In this document: positions 48,404-56,512 of the stretch, piece after piece
Position numbering within the stretch: the first letter of the stretch is position 1
Layout of the letters: every line of letters starts with the position of its first letter
Assembly (NCBI GenBank): GCA_963815195.1
Contig: CAWFGE010000016.1
Span: forward strand, 32,001 to 96,000
Direction of reading: 5' to 3'
Source of the DNA: an uncultured Planctomycetaceae bacterium
Lineage (GTDB): Bacteria > Planctomycetota > Planctomycetia > Planctomycetales > Planctomycetaceae
Length of the DNA: 64,000 bases
Program-made: the position numbers and the translations under genes
Notes under the pieces: generated by a model
Seen by the model: only the letters and a program-made list of their open reading frames with translations
What the model was told of the DNA's origin: nothing
The model's database searches: none

Positions 48404-50007
48404 CAGAACTGCCGCCCGCGGATGAACGCGACCCCTTTTTTCAATGGCTGATCCTGCGGTTGGAGCAGTCCGCAAGTCACGAGGCGAGGGAACCATCTCC
48501 CGGTCACAGATCATCTGCGGAAAGCATCTTGTTGGACATCGAACGCGCGGAACGCTGCGCAAATGCACTGGCTGCGATCTGGCCGGATATAGACCCTGGG
48601 ATGGATTCGACTTCAGACGCCTCAATCGATGCGGTTCCTCTTGACGGCCGAAGCAACAACTCCCACCTAAGTGATCTGGGATCCCTCGGACGCTTTCAAA
48701 TCCAGCGTCTGCTCGGTCGCGGCGGAATGGGCAATGTGTTCCTGGCATTCGACCCGACGCTACAAAGGCCGGTGGCCTTGAAAGTGCCTCGGTTCGATGT
48801 GGCTGGCGACCCCCTGTTGAGAGAAAGATTCTTGATTGAGGCGCGATCCGCCGCTAAGCTCAGTCATCCGAATCTTGTGGAGGTTTATGACGCCGGGCTG
48901 GACGGATCGATCTGCTTCATCGCGTCGGCCTATTGCGATGGGCCGGATCTCGAGAATTGGCTGGCTTCTCAAGACCATCCCGTCGAGCCGAAACTGGCGG
49001 CAGGTTTGGTTGAACGCGTTGCCCAGGCAATTCATTATTGCCACGAGATGGGAATTGTCCATCGCGACCTGAAGCCGGCGAATATCTTGCTGGCGTCCGC
49101 GACCGACGACCAAATCGCGGCACAGCGGGGAATGCCCTTCACTCCCAAAATCACCGATTTCGGACTCGCGAGGGTAATTGAAGAGAGGCTCAGCCAGACG
49201 CGTAGCAGTTTAATTGTCGGCACGCCATTGTACATGGCTCCCGAGCAGGCGGACGGTCGCACGGATGCGGTTGGACCAGCAACGGACATTTTTGCTCTGG
49301 GAGTGATTCTCTACGAACTATTGACGGGTCGTCCACCTTTTGAAGGTCGCACGGCACTCACAGTCCTCAGTCGGATTCAACGCGAAGAACCGGTCTCGCC
49401 GACCCGCGTCCACCGGCAAGTGCCCGCCGGGTTGGAAGCCATCTGCATGAGATGTCTCCGCAAGCTGCCAGAGGAACGTTACAAGAGTGCCGGTGCCCTT
49501 GCCGCCGACTTGAAGAAATGGCAAAACGGTGGACGCATATCGGCCCGCCGATTCACACTCTGGGACCGATTCCGAACATGGAGTCGCCAATCGGAACGTT
49601 TGCGAGACGCGGGACTCGCCGCGATTGGCTGGAATGGCGCGATCTTCCTCATACTCATGGTTCTCGTGTTTAATTATGTGTTCGGGATTGAGACACCGCT
49701 CCCTTCCAGTGGCAGCGATCTGCTGGTGTTGGAGTGTCTCATCGGATCCGGTATGCATGGTTTTTTCTGCTGGGTGGGGTGGCGAACCATTCGCGGCGAC
49801 CGCTGGGCCTATTGGGTGGGATTCGCGGGCGCTCTGTTCATTTGCCTCTTGGCCGCGAACGCCCTGATGGGCGGTTACAGCATATTCAGCATTTACGATG
49901 ATTTTTTAGTCGCCAAATTCCTAATCATGCTGGTTTTTACGGTACTTTCGGCCATACAACTTTTGGCCTTCCTGGTGGCAATGCTTGCCTCGACACCCGA
50001 GTTGTAA
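48400..50007 (+). CDS. Hanks-type Ser/Thr protein kinase with C-terminal transmembrane helices
   Basis: ATGA overlap with the sigma gene. GRGGMG, VALK, HRDLKPAN, DFGLAR, GTPLYMAPE. Confidence 0.93.
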   Translation: MTELPPADERDPFFQWLILRLEQSASHEAREPSPGHRSSAESILLDIERAERCANALAAIWPDIDPGMDSTSDASIDAVPLDGRSNNSHLSDLGSLGRFQIQRLLGRGGMGNVFLAFDPTLQRPVALKVPRFDVAGDPLLRERFLIEARSAAKLSHPNLVEVYDAGLDGSICFIASAYCDGPDLENWLASQDHPVEPKLAAGLVERVAQAIHYCHEMGIVHRDLKPANILLASATDDQIAAQRGMPFTPKITDFGLARVIEERLSQTRSSLIVGTPLYMAPEQADGRTDAVGPATDIFALGVILYELLTGRPPFEGRTALTVLSRIQREEPVSPTRVHRQVPAGLEAICMRCLRKLPEERYKSAGALAADLKKWQNGGRISARRFTLWDRFRTWSRQSERLRDAGLAAIGWNGAIFLILMVLVFNYVFGIETPLPSSGSDLLVLECLIGSGMHGFFCWVGWRTIRGDRWAYWVGFAGALFICLLAANALMGGYSIFSIYDDFLVAKFLIMLVFTVLSAIQLLAFLVAMLASTPEL

Positions 50008-50094
50008 AGCCTCAGTTCGATCTGGAATTCCTGGCTGGTTGGGTTAGTCTATTCTTTATGAGAGGATGAAAGGTAGGATGAAAGGGGCCATCGA

Positions 50095-50500
50095 AAGCGC
50101 CGGGATAAACCGGCTTGGAGTCAGGAATGGAAGGCTCCGACGCAGAAGGTGTAGGCAACCACTGCGGCCTCGAACCGTACGCTGGCAGCGGTAACGTTGC
50201 GGGTGTCGCATCGGCCAGAGGTACAGGCAGGCCAGCTATTGAGCTCCGAAATAATTCTTCCCGTGTGCCCACACTGTGATGGCTGTGGAAGGCGGGGCGC
50301 CTTCTGGGCCCGGACAGTCGCGTTTTGCCAGCGGCTGGCCGGCACGGCGGAGTCGTGGAACCTGAGCATGTCTGGAAACTCCAAGCGCGAGAACCGGGAG
50401 ATCCCCCAGGTTTCCGAGTCTTCGGACCCGGAACGGCCGGAAAACGCCTCGGGCGGTACAGCCGGCATGGACGCTTTGGGGAAGTCAGATGGGTCCCTAG
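50095..50500 (+). ncRNA. Group II intron 5' fragment (domain I region; no RT, no domain V/VI)
   Basis: GCGCCGGGATAAACCGGC start, GCAGGCCAGCTATTGAGCTCCGAAAT, GGAAACTCCAAGCGCGAGAACCGGGAGATCCC and GGGAAGTCAGATGGG resemble bacterial class E-like intron RNA (from recall). Confidence 0.7.
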
Positions 50501-50503
50501 CGC

Positions 50504-50710
50504 GTAGGGTGTGTCGAGCGAGACGAAGGGCCAAAACCCCGCCCCGATCCGGACAACCGCGCCATGACCGTACGGTGCTGTTTCCCGATAGACCCAGCGA
50601 GCGAAGACGCACCACAACGATGGCTACGACGTGGATTCCGGAGGGCATCCCAAAACGCCGCCCGCGTCCGTCAAATACCATTCCACACCGCCCGACGTTC
50701 GCGGTGCGTC
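50504..50710. repeat. GTAG-type REP-like region
   Basis: GTAGGGTGTGTC (50504) ... GACGCACC (50606) ... GGTGCGTC (50703). Confidence 0.45.
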
Positions 50711-50784
50711 GGCGCAAAGCTTGGGTCACCTTCCACTGACTAACATCAACACGCCCAAATTCCACTTACCGCTGAACCAGGACA

Positions 50785-52050
50785 GGTTACACGGGCGGCT
50801 ATGATGCCGTGCGGCGGTTCGTGAATCGGCATCGGAAGAACCACGCCGAGACGTTCATCCCCTTGGATCATCGGCCCGGCCAGCGAATCGAAGCCGACTT
50901 TGGCGAGATTTCGGTGGACTTCCCCGACGGCCGCCGGAAGGTCAACGTGCTGATCCTGGTGTGGTCGTATTCCAACGCTCCGTTCGCGGTGGCGCTGCCG
51001 ACCCAGCGAACCGAAGCGATCTTGGAAGGCATGACGCAGGCGTTTGACTTTTTCGGCTGCGTGCCCGAAGAAGTCTGGTGGGACAATCCGACGACCGTGG
51101 CCACCGAGTTATTGACAGGGCGGTCGCGGAAGATCAATCCGCGTTACCAGGCGCTCGCCAGCCATTACGTGTTCGATCCGCTGTTCTGCATGCCCGCGCG
51201 GGGCAATGAAAAGCCGGTGGTGGAAAACCGCGTGAAGACGTTGGGAGCGGAAATGGTCCACGCCCGTGCCTCGCGTGAAGGACATGGAGGAGTTCAATGC
51301 GTATCTTCGCGAGTGTTGCTTGAAGGAACACGCTCGCTGCAGCAGCGGCCAGACGCAAACGATCGGGGAACGCTTCGCGGAGGAAAAACAGCGATCCGCT
51401 CCGCTTCCCGTGCCGCGGTTTGATCCCTGCATCCGGCAATCGGCGAAGGTCAACAAGTATCAGTTCGCGCGGTTCGACAATGTGAACTACAGCGTGCCTC
51501 GCCACGCCGCTTTTCAAACGGTGACGGTCAAGGGTTATGTGGATCGTGTCGAGATTGTGTTGAACGAAACCGTCGTCGCCGTCCACGAACGGAGCTATCA
51601 CGCGGGCGATGATGTGCTGGATCCTTTGCACTATTTGACCACATTAACGCGTCGCCCGGCGGCTTTGGATCATGCGAACGTGTATCGCGATTGGAAGCTG
51701 CCCGCCGTGTTCGGCGAACTCCGCGAGCGTTTGGAAAGGCGGCACGGTCCCCACGCGGGCGTGCGGCAATTCGTGCGGGTGCTGCAGTTGCTGGCCGAGC
51801 ATCCGCTCTCGCGCGTGCAGGCGGCGATCGAGCAACTTCGCGGCCCCGAAGGAGCCGATGCCGATCGCATCATTCGCCGCGTGGAAGCCTCCGCCCTCCG
51901 CCTGTCGGAAACATCGTCCGAGGGCATTTCCACTCCGATCGAGTGCGAACACCCCGGCGTGTTGTCGGTTCAAGTTCCCTGTCCGAGCTTGAGCCATTTT
52001 GACCAGTTCCTGTCCTCCTTCCAAGGAGATTCCGATTATGTCCCCGAACC
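50785..52050 (+). pseudogene. istA: IS21-family transposase IstA, 5'-truncated, frameshift near 51245
   Basis: GYTGGYDAVRRFV, PGQRIEADFG, FFGCVPEEVWWDN, GNEKPVVE, RFDNVNYSVP, LDPLHYL. Confidence 0.9.
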
Positions 52051-52396
52051 CGAAACACGATGCCAACCAGATGCTCCTCAAGGCCAACCTCAAGCAACTC
52101 CGGCTGCCGACAATCCTGGCCGAGTACGAGAAGTTGGCCCGCGAAGCGAGTGCCTCGAACCAGACCTTCGAGCAGTACCTGCTCCGGTTGACCGAACTGG
52201 AGGTCGCGGCCCGGCAGACCAATGCCTTGAACAGCCGGATCCGCAATGCGAACTTTCCGGTGGAGAAGGGACTGGAGGATTACGACTTCCAAGCGGTGCC
52301 CGGCCTCCACAAACAAACGATTTTGGAGTTGGCCCGCGGGGAGTGGATTGCCCAGCATTTCAATGTGTGTTTTCTTGGCCAACCGGGGACGGGAAA
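52038..52396 (+). pseudogene. istB: IS21 helper ATPase IstB, N-terminal part ending at Walker A (GQPGTGK)
   Basis: AAGGAG RBS, then LKQLRLPTI...ANFPVEKGLEDYDF...NVCFLGQPGTGK, then unrelated sequence. Confidence 0.92.
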
Positions 52397-52797
52397 GGTC
52401 CGACCATCACAAGACACCTCTGGTCACTCAGTTATCGCGCGGTGAGATCACCGTCACCGATCCGGCCCATCCGCTTTATGGCCGAACATTTGATTTGTTC
52501 GGCTTAGCCCGCCTGCCAGGTTATCGTCAGTATTATCAAGTCGAGATTTTTCCTGACGAGATGACCTACATCGACGTCAGCAGCACGAACCTTTCCACCG
52601 CTCCTCCCCAAAAAACTTCCTGTCTGACCCCGGACGCGCTCCAGGATTTGGTGACTACCTTTCGGGATATTCTTTCTCGGAGGGAAGCCGATGTCACCCA
52701 TTGCCACGGACCAGGTGTGGAACCGTCTGACTCTTCCAGAGCAGCAGCGGATCATCCAGCAAATCGTCGTCATTCTAACGGAGGAACTGGAGCATGA
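52397..52797 (+). CDS. Start-less accessory ORF (Y4bD/Y4pK, DUF5372-like) of element 1; completed on circularisation
   Basis: Open frame SDHHKTPLV...ITVTDPAHPLYGRTFDL. No ATG/GTG/TTG between the junction and this motif. Confidence 0.7.
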
Positions 52798-52975
52798 ACG
52801 GATCGATGAAAGTCAGCACCAGCCATTTGAATCGCCGCGGGATCGTATATCTTCGTCAGAGCACGACGAAGCAGGTCGAGAAAAACCAAGAGAGTGCCCA
52901 CAACCAGCGAGCCTTGAAAACCCGGTTGTTGGAGTTGGGGTGGAAGCCGGAACAAGTCAGCATCCTGGAGGATGA
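52691..52975 (+). CDS. Small hypothetical protein of element 1
   Basis: GGAGGG RBS, then MSPIATDQVWNRLTLPEQQRII. Positional equivalent of 55385..55573. The 3' end overlaps the recombinase. Confidence 0.55.
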   Translation: MSPIATDQVWNRLTLPEQQRIIQQIVVILTEELEHERIDESQHQPFESPRDRISSSEHDEAGREKPRECPQPASLENPVVGVGVEAGTSQHPGG

Positions 52976-54868
52976 TCAAGGGCAATCGGCCACGCAAACG
53001 GCGGGACGCGGGGCCTTTCAACAGATGGTCGCCGACGTCGGCTTGGGTAAGGTCGGCATCATTCTGGGCTATGAAGTTTCACGGCTTTCCCGCAACGATG
53101 TGGATTGGCATCGACTGTTGGAATTGTGTGCGATCTTTGACACACTCATCGGTGATGTGGATGGGTTGTATCATCCACGGGATTTCAACGACAGGCTCCT
53201 CTTAGGCTTGAAGGGCACGATGTCTTCGGCAGACTCCATAGCCTCCGATTGCGATTGGACGCGGGTCGATTGTCGAAGGCCGCGCGGGGCGAGTTGGTGC
53301 AAAACTTGCCGACGGGCTTGGTCCGCAATCTGGACAAGGCGGTAATGCTCGATCCCGATCTGAGCATTCAAAAGCGATTGCATTTGGTGTTCGACAAGTT
53401 CGTGGAGTTGGGCACGATTCAAAAAGTCTTGACGTTCCTGGCCAAGAAAAATTTGAAGATTCCCCGGCGCCAAGTTTCGGGCCTTTATGCGGGCGAAGTG
53501 TTTTGGAGAGAAGCCACGGCCGCTTCGTTGGGCTCGATCCTGCATAACCCGGCTTATGCAGGCGCGTTTGCTCATGGGCGTCGGCAAGTCAATCCCACGC
53601 TACGAATTCCCGGTCGTCCTGCCACGGGTCGCACGCGCCGGCCCCAAGCGGAATGGTCGGTCTTAATTCCCGGCATCTACCCGGCCTATATCAGTTGGGA
53701 GCAGTACGAAGACAACCAACGCCGAATCGCTCAAAACAACCTCCGCATCCAACAACGACTCGCCGCCAAGCAAGCCATCCGCAACGGCTGCGCGTTGTTA
53801 ACGGGCTTATTGCGCTGCGGAAAATGCGGTCGAACGATGGGAGTGAATTACAAGGAGAACCGCTTTCAATACTCATGCAATTCTGGCTATCGGCATTACG
53901 CCCAACGATCCTGCCAGTACTTGGGCGGCAACAAGATCGACGAGGCGGTGACGGAAGCTTTCTTTGAAGTGCTGCGGCCTGCCGAGATCGATGTGTTGGA
54001 GAAACTCTCCGCCGAAAGGGCTCGCACGCATGCGGACGTGGTTCGGCATTTGGAGCAAGACGTCGGGCGCTTGCAATACGCCGCCCATCGGGCCGAGCAA
54101 CAATACGACTGTGTCGATCCCAAGAACCGTTTGATTGCGGCCAGTCTGGAAGAGAAATGGGAATCGGCTTTGTTGGCGCAAAAGCAAGCCGAAGAAAACC
54201 TGGCGGATGCCCGCCGAGAAATTCCCCAACCGATCCGCGTACCGAAGTCCTTGCGAGACGCCTTCGCGGATGTCGGGCGGCAGCTTCCCGAACTCTGGCC
54301 CGAGTTGTCTTGGGAGGCGAAGAAGTCGTTGTTGCGGACGATGATTACGGGAGTCAATCTTCACCGGCAATCGGATGGGCTGGTGCAAATTCGCATGGTC
54401 TGGGCCGGCGGTTCGGTGACCGAAACGTCGGCTCTCCTACGGCGTTTTTCAATGAAACACACGGACTTGGAAGAGCACATCGTGGAACGCATCCGGCAAG
54501 AAACCAGCGAAGGCCGGTCGAGTGAAATGATCGCGGCGGATCTCAATCGCGAAGGCCATCATCCCTGTCGTGGCGAACAATTCACCTCGCAAATCGTGAA
54601 CAAGTTAAGACATCGCTACCGGATCAAAAGCCCGCGTGCAAAGAACCTGCCCCATGCCTGGACCGCCGCGGAAATGGCTCAGGAAATCGGGCGCAACATA
54701 TCCTGGATGTATCATAAAATTGAGCAAAGACAGATCGTGGTTTCTGTCGATCCAATTTATCGGTGCTATCTGTTTCCCAAAACTGAGGAGGTTAAAGACG
54801 CCATGCTAAAACTCAAAAATCACGAAACCGAGCAAATCACTATCCCAAGGGGGCACAACAATGGCTGA
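52794..54868 (+). CDS. Large serine recombinase; frameshift near 53235
   Basis: Catalytic IVYLRQS, EDDQGQS, EVSRLSRN, NDRLLLGLKGTMS, ILHNPAYAG, Zn-ribbon LRCGKCG, VDPKNRLIA. Confidence 0.92.
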
Positions 54869-54871
54869 GTC

Positions 54872-55063
54872 AAAACTCACTGCTGCCAGGCCGTGGGCCG
54901 CAGTGCGATCAAGGCGGGCTTCTCGGTGCTCTACCGTTCGATCTTCGATGTGGTCCGCGACTTCCTGCACGAGGCCGCGTTCGACGGCGATGACAAAACA
55001 TTGCAGCGTTACCTCAAGCCCGACCTGTTGATCGTCGACGACATGGGCATGAAGCAACTACCG
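54872..55063 (+). pseudogene. istB: IstB middle segment (Walker A end to Walker B)
   Basis: KTHCCQAVGRSAIKAGFSVLYRSIFDVVRDFL...YLKPDLLIVDDMGMKQLP. Confidence 0.88.
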
Positions 55064-55416
55064 CTACCCATCAACACAATGCTCATAAACCGTCCTCGGT
55101 AACGATCTGCTATCGTTTCCATGCTTTCTATGGCGAAGAGGTCCAGTTCGTTCGCACGTTTGGTGCGACCCATCATCTCGTGCGGTTGCCGGACGATGTG
55201 CAACTTGCCATTCCCTGTTGGATGCTTGATCCGATCGCCTGTGATCAGTGTCCCAATGCGGACCAGCCGCGGATCGCGATCGCGCCTTTGCTTGAGCTTC
55301 GCCAGCTTCTGAATCGTCAACCGTTGTTTCGCGCCGAGGATGGCTTTACGAATGGAGGAAACTCACTTTCTCCAGGAGATTCCGATGCCGCGAAGCAAAG
55401 CTCTTCCTCTCCCTAA
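55063..55416 (+). CDS. Start-less accessory ORF of element 2
   Basis: Open frame ATHQHNAHKPSSVTICYRFHAFYGEEV...LAIPCWMLDPIAC...PRIAIAPLLELRQLL. The first possible start (GTG 55180) lies after the YRFHAFYG motif. Confidence 0.65.
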   Translation, partial: ATHQHNAHKPSSVTICYRFHAFYGEEVQFVRTFGATHHLVRLPDDVQLAIPCWMLDPIACDQCPNADQPRIAIAPLLELRQLLNRQPLFRAEDGFTNGGNSLSPGDSDAAKQSSSSP

Positions 55417-55573
55417 ACAGCAGGTGTTTGCGTTTGCACGAGTTGATCTGTGGGACAAGCTCCCGCAGACCGTGCGTGATGAGTGCCAACGGCTCCTCGC
55501 AGAGCAGTTGAAACAATCCTTGCCATCCCCTTCTCAACAGGAGCACGTCGATGAACGAGAAGATTCGATCTGA
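55385..55573 (+). CDS. Small hypothetical protein of element 2
   Basis: CAGGAG RBS, then MPRSK...LWDKLPQTVRDECQRLLAEQL. Overlaps the recombinase start. Confidence 0.6.
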   Translation: MPRSKALPLPKQQVFAFARVDLWDKLPQTVRDECQRLLAEQLKQSLPSPSQQEHVDEREDSI

Positions 55574-56512
55574 GCACCGAGAGCGAACCGCGTTTGTTTA
55601 TGTCCGGCAATCCAGTAATCATCAGGTCCGAGAACATCTCGAGGGACAACAACGGCAATATGCTCTGGCGGATTATGCGAGGCAGCTCAAATTCCAAAAG
55701 GTCACGGTGATTGATGATGATCTCGGCCGCTCGGGCAGTGGACTTCAGGACCGCCCGGGATTCGCGAGGTTACTCACAGCCGTTTGCCAAGGCGAAGCGG
55801 GAGCCGTGCTGGCCCTGGAGGCTTCTCGGTTGGCGCGGAACAATCGGGACTGGCACCATTTGATTGATCTGTGTGCGCTGACCGAGACGTTGATCATCGA
55901 TGACGATGGCGTCTGGCGTCTACGATCCCCGGGAACTCAACGACCGGTTGCTGTTGGGACTGAAGGGGAGTTTGGCAGAATTCGAGCTGGGGTTATTTCG
56001 ACAACGGGCTCGGGCCGCGTTTGAACAGAAAGTTCGACGGGGTCACATCCTGTGGGAGCCCGTGGTGGGTTTCGTCAAGACGGACGATCATCGGGTGGAA
56101 ATGATCGCTGATCGGCAAGTCCAAGAAGCCTTGCGCGGCGTCTTTCGCAAGTTTCGCGAGCTGGGCAGCGCGCGGCAGACGGCACTCTGGTACGCTCAAG
56201 AGCAACTGTGGCTTCCCGAGGCCGTCCGCGGCACTTCGGGCTATGAAATTCAGTGGCACATTCCCGGCCGGCATCGCATTCTGCAAATCCTGAAAAACCC
56301 GTGTTATGCGGGAGCTTTCGCTTGGGGACGAACCGTCTCGCAACTGTGGTGGAAGATGGCCGGGCGAGGACGAAGGGGCGAAAAAAGCGGCCGCGTGAGG
56401 AATGGAAGGTCTTGATTTTGGATCACCATCCCGGGTACATCACCTGGAAAGAGTATTTGCAAAATCAAGAGATTCTGGAGTCGAATCGAAACATGCCCGA
56501 AGGAACCACACC
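55551..56512 (+). pseudogene. Large serine recombinase, frameshifted and 3'-truncated
   Basis: FVYVRQS, DDDLGRSG, EASRLARNNRDW, NDRLLLGLKG, LKNPCYAG, DHHPGYITW. A 7-bp duplication (TGGCGTC x2 at 55907-55920) shifts the frame. Confidence 0.88.

Follow-up and report, generated by a model that had tools for sequence, protein, structure and literature searches.

The 64,000-bp stretch of DNA analysed here (the window; C16:32001-96000) comes from the 8.87-Mb genome, in 25 contigs, of an uncultured member of the Planctomycetaceae, and it contains a foreign insert of 2477 bp, element 1 (E1), inside the istB gene of an IS21 insertion sequence (IS). E1 spans window positions 52397-54873, which includes the right copy of an AA dinucleotide found at both of its borders. 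We consider it highly likely that E1 is a small autonomous element moved by its own large serine recombinase (LSR) through conservative site-specific recombination, that its attB is the DNA encoding the Walker A P-loop of the IstB protein, and that the strands are exchanged at the AA of the lysine codon.

The istB reading frame in the window begins at 52038, breaks off after GGG ACG GGA AA (52396) and picks up at 54874 with A ACT CAC TGC, just as a first-pass annotation of the sequence had described it. The AA at the two borders (52395-52396 and 54872-54873) falls in the glycine-lysine codons of the Walker A motif, and the Pfam profile IstB_IS21 (PF01695) is broken between its positions 104 and 106. 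On the left side, the 5' part of an istB gene of an IS21 here called type A (52038-52396; this and the other genes, gene fragments and element parts of the window described below lie on the + strand) supplies codons 1-119 and the AA of the lysine codon (G-Q-P-G-T-G-K; PF01695 positions 2-104, E 9e-19). On the right side, the middle part of an istB gene of type B' (54874-55064; PF01695 positions 106-167) continues with (K)THCCQAVG through the Walker B motif DDMG to KQLP. The left AA, the core of attL, is followed by GGTCCGACCAT, with which the left terminal arm begins (52397-52420; the element half of attL), in register with the left arms of the relatives described below. The right AA, identified as the core of attR by sequence and junction comparison, is preceded by ATGGCTGAGTC, with which the right terminal arm ends (54848-54871; the element half of attR), and this arm overlaps the last codons of the recombinase gene.

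A blast search with 52397-54873 against the host genome recovered eight near-full copies of E1 (2464-2479 bp, 99.5-100% identity) with the same ends, one copy truncated to 679 bp and one 92-bp remnant at 81% identity. Since E1 is a multicopy repeat with identical ends, the insertion is not a matter of chance. All nine left junctions read GG[G/A]AA and then GGTCCGACCAT, and all seven readable right junctions read GAGTCAA and then the K-T/S remainder of IstB, one further copy running off its contig and another being truncated. The precise insertion into the Walker A lysine codon that had been proposed for the window thus recurs at every readable junction in the genome. A fragment identical to the 5' part of the window istB gene adjoins E1 at four other places. 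The 92-bp remnant (C6:1454-1545) corresponds to the right end, is AT-enriched and decayed, and still adjoins a type A istB gene, the remainder of the element having been replaced.

Three IS21 types, only ~34% identical in the N-terminal part of IstB, are represented among the flanks of these copies. Around the insertion point, type A reads GQPGTGK / THISIGLG, type B reads GPPGTGK / SHCCQAVG and type C reads GAPGSGK / TNLLSALG. Empty sites with a single AA were identified in uninterrupted istB genes of types B and C (C23:241468-242088; C9) and in four more genes, so that every copy is bordered by AA on either side and the unoccupied site has it a single time, as is typical of the core dinucleotides of LSRs. 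The attL of the copy in C18, compared with the intact gene in C23 as the empty site, has exactly two A's, which indicates that the shared dinucleotide corresponds to the first two bases of the lysine codon. In addition, the copy at C7:76706 and the intact C9 copy together rebuild GGGAAGACG with one AA, and both comparisons place the crossover where it had been suggested. The boundaries are independently supported by contigs of three metagenome studies, in which the sequence switches precisely at 52395 and 54873/54879 to other IS21 flanks, namely those of type B on the left and of types A and C on the right.

Relatives of E1 were found to use the same site. A scan of one genome per species yielded five loci with recombinases 52-63% identical to that of E1 over their full length, labelled Chloroflexota, Planctomycetales, Gemmataceae, Phycisphaerales and Pirellulales; the labels of short contigs from metagenome-assembled genomes are uncertain, and one relative (L044) is a 5.25-Mb chromosome record. 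A metagenome scan added 24 further loci (48-74% identity) and one contig of E1 itself; two pairs among the relatives, L053/L054 and L060/L061, are duplicate sequences. In tblastn searches with the host IstB proteins, 17 loci had IstB immediately after the recombinase stop codon and 13 had it ~400 bp before the recombinase start, and IstB and the recombinase were always encoded on one strand. At the right junctions, 19 of 23 relatives, with recombinases 48-67% identical to that of E1, go on as IstB K-[T/S]-H/F/R (16 confirmed by tblastn, 3 read by eye on short flanks), while two are too short and two lie in other genes. At the left junctions, 15 of the 18 relatives with enough flank adjoin codons for G-x-x-G-x-G-K that end in GGNAA and 3 do not; the left flank of L067 was read as IstB-like. 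The recurrent insertion of homologs into the Walker A codons of istB, which the first-pass annotation had named as the test of its claim, is therefore observed both among the relatives and at the nine left junctions of the host genome.

The consensus of these sites is ..T.GG.....C.GG.AC.GG.AA on the left of the crossover and RAC.CA.. on the right, with codon positions 1 and 2 fixed and position 3 free. The IstB N-terminal parts of the IS21 elements that host the relatives are 30-74% identical to that of type A. That E1 is a parasite of transposons, as had been suggested, agrees with the use of the same istB codon in three IS21 types of the host genome and by relatives elsewhere. A 2-bp overlap and one fixed orientation are what is expected of a serine recombinase with a non-palindromic core.

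According to the mechanism that we propose, E1 would excise as a circle, the joined ends of which would constitute attP. The circle could then integrate into any IstB P-loop sequence that fits ..C.GG.AC.GG.AA followed by RAC.CA.., a pattern that would be set by codon positions 1 and 2 of G-x-G-K-T/S-H. The insertion would cut IstB after the P-loop glycine, and precise excision would restore the lysine codon. Because the protein would be truncated at this point, the IS21 copy should be inactivated, and from what is known of IstB we infer that E1 disables its IS21 host. The terminal arms resemble those of an LSR attP in that an imperfect inverted repeat surrounds the core and is clear in the relatives, where 11-18 of 24 positions are complementary around AA in nine relatives (raw counts, without a shuffled control). 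The right arm follows the pattern [A/C/G]TGG[C/T]TGAG.. and then AA in 19 of 20 right ends, the window counted; the remaining one, L049, has TA.

The recombinase gene of the window (52794-54868, with the stop codon TGA at 54866-54868) is split into the frames 52794-53345 and 53249-54868 by the loss of one G after position 53233, a base that is present in metagenome contigs and other copies. A frame of 696 codons is open in three of the eight copies (C15, C18, C12), and the enzyme is a 691-aa LSR with the layout of this class, that is, an N-terminal catalytic domain (Resolvase, PF00239, residues 17-167, E 6e-16), a Recombinase domain (PF07508, 197-315, 63 bits, E 3e-17) and then a zinc beta-ribbon (Zn_ribbon_recom, PF13408, 335-389, 41 bits, E 3e-10), all three above the Pfam cut-offs. 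The residues R21, Q22 and S23 of the R-Q-S motif with the catalytic serine do not vary among 15 aligned sequences. Among the NCBIfam models, XisF fits best with 67.7 bits against a cut-off of 375, CcrA scores 33 bits against 700, and the closest solved structure is SprA of SPbeta (E 2.6e-8). Since the family scores are far under their cut-offs and the nearest structure is this distant, the enzyme is, as judged from its sequence, an LSR outside any named subfamily.

Positions 53229-53234 of the recombinase gene are a hot spot for small insertions and deletions, where three copies lack a G and are frameshifted and the copy at C8:30223 has GAA instead of GAG. In C15, an extra A close to the hot spot keeps the frame and gives A-R-L where the family has A-E-L. 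At the other end of the gene, the recombinase frame is in phase with the downstream part of IstB across a single TGA (54863-54876 and all right ends of the E1 clade), and the codons after this TGA read G-K in most relatives of E1, copying the P-loop (..G*GKTH..). Four other LSR genes were identified in the host genome (C9:18629-19807, C8:410669-411847, C8:118688-119911 and C14:123839-124129), with frames of 526-538 aa that are ~23% identical to the recombinase of E1, and three of the four sit a few kb or less from IS21 copies.

The first-pass annotation called E1 a minimal serine-recombinase element. The recombinase is indeed there, but it is not the only gene, since the 397-bp left arm is also coding and carries two conserved small open reading frames (ORFs). 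The first, ORF-a (body at 52399-52794), is 37-50% identical over 10 aligned sequences, with 22 invariant columns that include D-P-x-H-P-L-x-G, and has no start codon inside the element. The second, ORF-b (52691-52972), begins inside the tail of ORF-a and runs into the start of the recombinase gene, is conserved in the same number of sequences and was found by tblastn in every E1-clade locus with a covered left arm. Its product is small and helical, and aa 1-40 make up the conserved core, where the ATG, W10, I25, L29, E31, E32 and E36 are invariant in 10 sequences. Pfam searches at E <= 10 gave nothing meaningful for either ORF of E1, four relatives and element 2b (a second element in the window, described below), and there was no match to the small ORFs of E1 in NCBIfam. 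A comparison of ORF-a with the DUF5372 (PF17342) proteins encoded upstream of more distant LSRs gave an hhalign probability of 84% (E 7.5e-6) over 60 columns including H-P-x-x-G, which suggests that ORF-a is a remote relative of DUF5372.

The missing start of ORF-a is provided by the opposite end of the element. An ATG at 54861-54863 is in frame with ORF-a only when the ends of the element are joined, in a circle or in tandem. When the ends were joined in silico, the ORF-a frame was open across 10 of 10 junctions and reached an ATG or GTG in the right end, and all 20 right ends contain an in-frame start for ORF-a with no stop codon in between. The start is at the same codon in 14 of these and the other 6 have an ATG nine codons further up, a complementary pattern that points to selection for a start. 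When the element is integrated, no ATG, GTG or TTG lies between the upstream stop codon and the junction in 8 of 19 rows, and the starts of the others are scattered; the row ownC_C7 in this comparison is unreliable and was not counted on. A split ORF-a is also seen by eye in element 2. In the circle, the recombinase, ORF-a and ORF-b would form a closed ring of overlapping genes, the recombinase stop overlapping with the ORF-a start, ORF-a with ORF-b, and ORF-b with the recombinase start. Since integration would sever ORF-a from its start codon, full-length ORF-a is likely to be produced from the excised circle alone.

ORF-a probably acts together with the recombinase, and both small ORFs, being conserved, are candidates for recombination directionality factors. 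The predicted structure of ORF-a (mean predicted local distance difference test score, pLDDT, 64.7) consists of a four-strand beta unit and a helix. Foldseek returned 0 matches to this model in the PDB at E <= 0.001, with a weak likeness to small barrels of the SH3/Tudor/KOW type, and in the absence of a clear structural match we draw no function from the fold. A complex prediction of ORF-a against the recombinase plus ORF-b scored 0.41, the best of three controls being 0.01. Of 157 solved complexes, 116 attained the mark used for such predictions, as did 2 of 215 mismatched pairs; with a score of 0.60 or lower, it was attained by just 18 of the 157 and by both of these mismatches. The runs shared at least 30% of their contacts and the pLDDT of the partner was at least 55. 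The model lends weak support to the idea that ORF-a binds the recombinase and/or ORF-b.

Several observations weigh against the interpretation of E1 as a mobile element with a fixed target in istB. Three members of the E1 clade lie outside istB, in a tyrosine recombinase gene (L047), beside an AAA_25 gene (L049) and in a serine recombinase gene (L065). A search of 401 genomes sampled from the phylum, in which few candidates were scored for each genome, detected a recombinase of the E1 clade (E <= 1e-130) in the host genome only. The host genome also has six istB genes with an intact P-loop and no insertion, and the recombinase is frameshifted in 5 of the 8 copies of E1. The terminal arms of E1 itself are complementary at only 9 of 24 positions, so that the symmetry of ATGG and CCAT described in the first-pass annotation is weak in the window copy, although it is strong in the relatives (up to 18 of 24). 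No excised circle or empty-site joint was found in the four metagenome runs (of 20) that were compared at the level of contigs, which drop rare forms, a result that is uninformative about excision. The start of ORF-a overlaps both the C-terminus of the recombinase and the attP arm, and the conservation of its ATG could thus have other causes. As a separate observation, the junctions of L049 (1090-3600, beside the AAA_25 gene) have TA and not AA, and this locus may be a natural variant of the core dinucleotide at a matching off-site.

Another difficulty is that three of the seven complete copies have hybrid flanks, namely the window (A/B'), C15 (A/C) and C12 (B/A), where the pairing in C12 is the reciprocal of that in the window. 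The sequences would fit either recombination between copies or mis-joins in the assembly. The left and right flanks match in the other four (C18, C7:76706, C8:30223 and C7:41277). Contigs end exactly at E1 boundaries at C14:205095, C19:269308, C21:2 and C23:1, from which it appears that E1 is a main cause of breaks in the assembly.

The window copy in particular is dead and rearranged, which speaks against reversibility for this copy. The right flank of type B' is 90.6% identical at the nucleotide level to the intact type B gene in C23 and 95% identical at the amino acid level to other type B right flanks; that its AACTCAC is a piece of type A carried over was ruled out, since the two adjacent differences from C23 are within the variation of type B. 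The remnant of istA to the left (type A, 50781-52037) is frameshifted into the two overlapping frames 50809-51423 and 51266-52040, with the Pfam domains rve and Mu-transpos_C_2, and it is 5'-truncated at 50781 by another repeat, whereas four other copies in the genome run on upstream. These two domains and the halves of PF01695 flank E1 and identify its target as an IS21, for which an intact reference copy is available in C23. With a frameshifted recombinase, flanks of two IS21 types, a second element in the same gene and a broken istA, excision of E1 would not rebuild a working gene here. The suggestion that excision restores istB is therefore upheld at the sequence level only for the four copies with matched flanks, and not for the window copy. 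The repeat that removes the 5' part of istA covers 50003-50784 (~0.78 kb here), and its two ends, 50003-50066 and 50724-50784, are found again with a spacing of ~1.6 kb at C1, C12, C16:105699-107324 and C21.

The frame-restoring register and the 2-bp overlap could also be explained if E1 were a domesticated on/off switch that the host or IS21 retains to restrain transposition, and whose regulated excision would reactivate istB in the manner of the sigK skin element or of fdxN and XisF. Indeed, XisF is the nearest named model in NCBIfam, and the nearest solved structure, SprA, belongs to the phage SPbeta and restores spsM as described in PMC5499854. However, the XisF score is far under its cut-off, and E1 is present in many copies, decays by frameshift, occurs across phyla and IS21 types and has left hybrid flanks, all of which are traits of a selfish element. 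We consider the switch unlikely, and it would in any case be compatible with a mobile E1 that targets istB rather than exclusive of it.

The three insertions in other genes, together with the few fixed bases in the attB consensus, could alternatively point to a transposase of loose specificity, similar to TnpX and TndX, which needs little beyond AA and for which insertions outside istB have been selected against. We give this little credence because codon, register and orientation are identical at over 30 junctions, whereas selection alone would have scattered the insertions over the whole IS21 and other dispensable DNA. The flanks of the off-site insertions are also still site-like beside the core, for example AA followed by AGAAGTCAC in L047. 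Furthermore, Pfam (E <= 0.01) detected only the three domains of the E1 recombinase and no DUF4368, a domain that according to Durrant et al. (2022; PMC10083194) is present in 63% of the TndX-like clade of multi-targeting LSRs.

Since every copy of E1 lies in an IS21, and the combination of type A and E1 occurs several times with the same left flank, the recombinase module might instead be cargo that was captured once in istB and then spread by IS21 transposition or duplication. The uniformity of element 2, all copies of which have one nonsense codon and one IS21 type, would fit such passive copying of element 2. For E1, we find this very improbable. Copies at least 99.5% identical are found in three IS21 types with highly diverged IstB N-terminal parts, and empty sites of the same IS21 types are present. 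Moreover, the copies of E1 differ by no more than 0.5%, whereas the 1.6-kb type A IS21 sequence at their left differs by 1.6-3.8% from that of the window, which makes the flanks 4-8 times more diverged than the element and argues for recent separate insertions. The relatives at the same codon, in IS21 elements as diverged from type A as described above, likewise speak against a single capture. Finally, the contig ends at element boundaries and the shuffled flanks might raise the suspicion that a repeat was misplaced in istB by the assembler, a chance that is practically negligible, since several metagenome studies yielded independent contigs with the same junctions, as did other assemblies such as L044.

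The second element in the window, element 2b (55065-56511), is inserted in the same istB gene after K-Q-L-P, 190 bp downstream of E1, and breaks off at 56511, where it is truncated. Its genes are arranged as in E1, its recombinase is frameshifted, and it is 84-85% identical at the nucleotide level to a 2.6-kb element, element 2 (C21:185-2788 and C14:202310-204912), which is also present in two partial copies (C19, C18). The recombinases of elements 2 and 2b are ~34% identical to that of E1, the core of element 2 is CC, and its empty site is visible in C23. A TAG codon is common to the three copies of element 2 that cover the site (C21, C14 and C19), where the window variant has W (..IQWHIPGR).

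More distant relatives lie in or near other genes for mobility. Among the 60 nearest genomes, 10 others contain LSR matches at E <= 1e-30 that are just 31-53% identical to E1 (best segments), and only one of these, L018, adjoins istB. This relative of element 2, from the same genus, is located next to the P-loop in reverse orientation, ~12 bp upstream of the AA used by E1. Another relative of element 2 (L017, 1-2817), also in reverse orientation, splits the R-H box of a tyrosine recombinase between S-P-H-V-L-R and H-S-F-A-T-H-L-L. Among the elements with LSRs 36-44% identical to that of E1, the one in L023 (1199-3925, reverse orientation) splits the helix-turn-helix (HTH) of an IS3 OrfA between G-V-S-E-E-T and T-F-F-R-W-K, and both halves were found. 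In the same identity range, L019 is located beside a truncated IS66 TnpB, L012 beside a Tn5-type dimerisation domain and L045 between an IS21 istB and an rve gene. The E1-type LSR genes in L047 (213-4671) and L014 (992-4136) carry insertions of other LSR elements directly behind L-L-L-G-L-K/Q/R (~aa 140); the outer element in L047 is the one in the tyrosine recombinase gene, which lies next to an IS91-type transposase. Although these are single cases in IS-rich DNA, their positions suggest, without proving it, a rule of transposase and recombinase targeting.

A module of DUF5372, HTH and LSR genes was identified in L016, L045, L046 and L072, with LSRs 36-44% identical to that of E1. Tentatively, and with somewhat more doubt than confidence, we hypothesize that E1 is one clade of a wider, undescribed superfamily (a DUF5372-like protein, a small or HTH protein and an LSR) of hyperparasites of mobile elements that use the codons of invariant motifs as att sites. 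The insertion sites observed here to which this would apply are the Walker A lysine of IstB, the position just after Walker B in IstB, the IstB P-loop with the element in the opposite orientation, the R-H box of tyrosine recombinases, the G-L-K-G helix of LSRs and the HTH of IS3 OrfA. In such a superfamily, ORF-a would be split by attP and translated only from the circle, and might thereby sense whether the element is free or integrated and set the direction of recombination.

The chemistry and anatomy of E1 are those of LSR elements. What is unlike the known ones is its minimal size, its motif-encoded target in a transposon ATPase across IS21 families and phyla, its two accessory ORFs and the fact that one of the accessory genes spans attP. 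Among the LSRs of phages and prophage-like elements, SpoIVCA of the skin element interrupts sigK and XisF acts on fdxN, and the integrases of phiC31, Bxb1 and A118 belong to the same group. E1 shares with these, and with SprA of SPbeta, the three-domain enzyme, the 2-bp crossover, the insertion within a gene in a register that excision can restore, and the fixed orientation. In contrast, E1 is only 2.5 kb long, multicopy and free of phage genes or large cargo, its recombinase scores far under the family cut-offs, and its target is not one chromosomal locus but a gene of another mobile element, with a motif-encoded site in many diverged genes.

The transposons Tn4451/Tn4453 (TnpX) and Tn5397 (TndX), which move through a circular intermediate, also use an LSR as transposase and have a dinucleotide at both ends. 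They carry cargo for resistance or conjugation and insert at many sites with a GA core, whereas E1 uses AA inside one conserved motif and its enzyme has no detected DUF4368. The joint of the Tn4451 circle forms a promoter for tnpX; the joint of E1 would instead complete the coding sequence of ORF-a. The IS607 family likewise consists of minimal serine-recombinase elements. Its transposases are small, with an N-terminal HTH for DNA binding, a C-terminal catalytic domain and low target specificity, and the 691-aa enzyme of E1, with its N-terminal catalytic domain followed by the Recombinase and zinc-ribbon domains, is thus not of the IS607 kind.

A target inside another mobile element is known from IS4321/IS5075 and other members of IS1111/IS110, which insert into terminal repeats or attC sites, whereas the target of E1 is the coding sequence of a catalytic motif. 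The enzymes also belong to a different class, those of IS1111/IS110 being DEDD transposases with a guide RNA as reported in PMC11187229 and PMC11208158. E1 furthermore resembles the inteins and homing endonuclease genes in the P-loops of ATPases in being a selfish insertion into the most conserved codons of a gene, a position that secures a conserved target in different hosts. Those elements home by double-strand-break repair, and splicing of the protein or RNA keeps the host gene working, whereas E1 breaks the gene, which only excision at the DNA level would mend. Full-text searching, with subscription journals and ISfinder outside its scope, found no account of a serine-recombinase element inserted in istB, and the word DUF5372 occurred in no paper. 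IstB and IS21 do not appear in the main text of Durrant et al. (2022; PMC10083194), nor do IstB, IS21 or PF01695 in eight of its supplementary files.

Our findings indicate that what serves as the "chromosomal" site of a serine-recombinase element can be a protein motif of another transposon. As a site, the P-loop is multicopy, harmless to the host, conserved across phyla and moved between cells by IS21 itself. E1 would thereby add an extra layer to the ecology of mobile elements by silencing copies of IS21, and its relatives may do the same to IS3, to IS91-associated recombinases and to one another. Given the shuffled flanks, E1 may also shape the rearrangement of the genome. With dozens of attB variants already known for its LSRs, the E1 clade is a useful natural collection for studying how these enzymes read degenerate sites. 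If the coding sequence of ORF-a is in fact complete in the circle alone, E1 would possess a simple genetic means of distinguishing its excised from its integrated state, with relevance to the old problem of how the direction of recombination is chosen in serine-recombinase elements that lack phage regulation.

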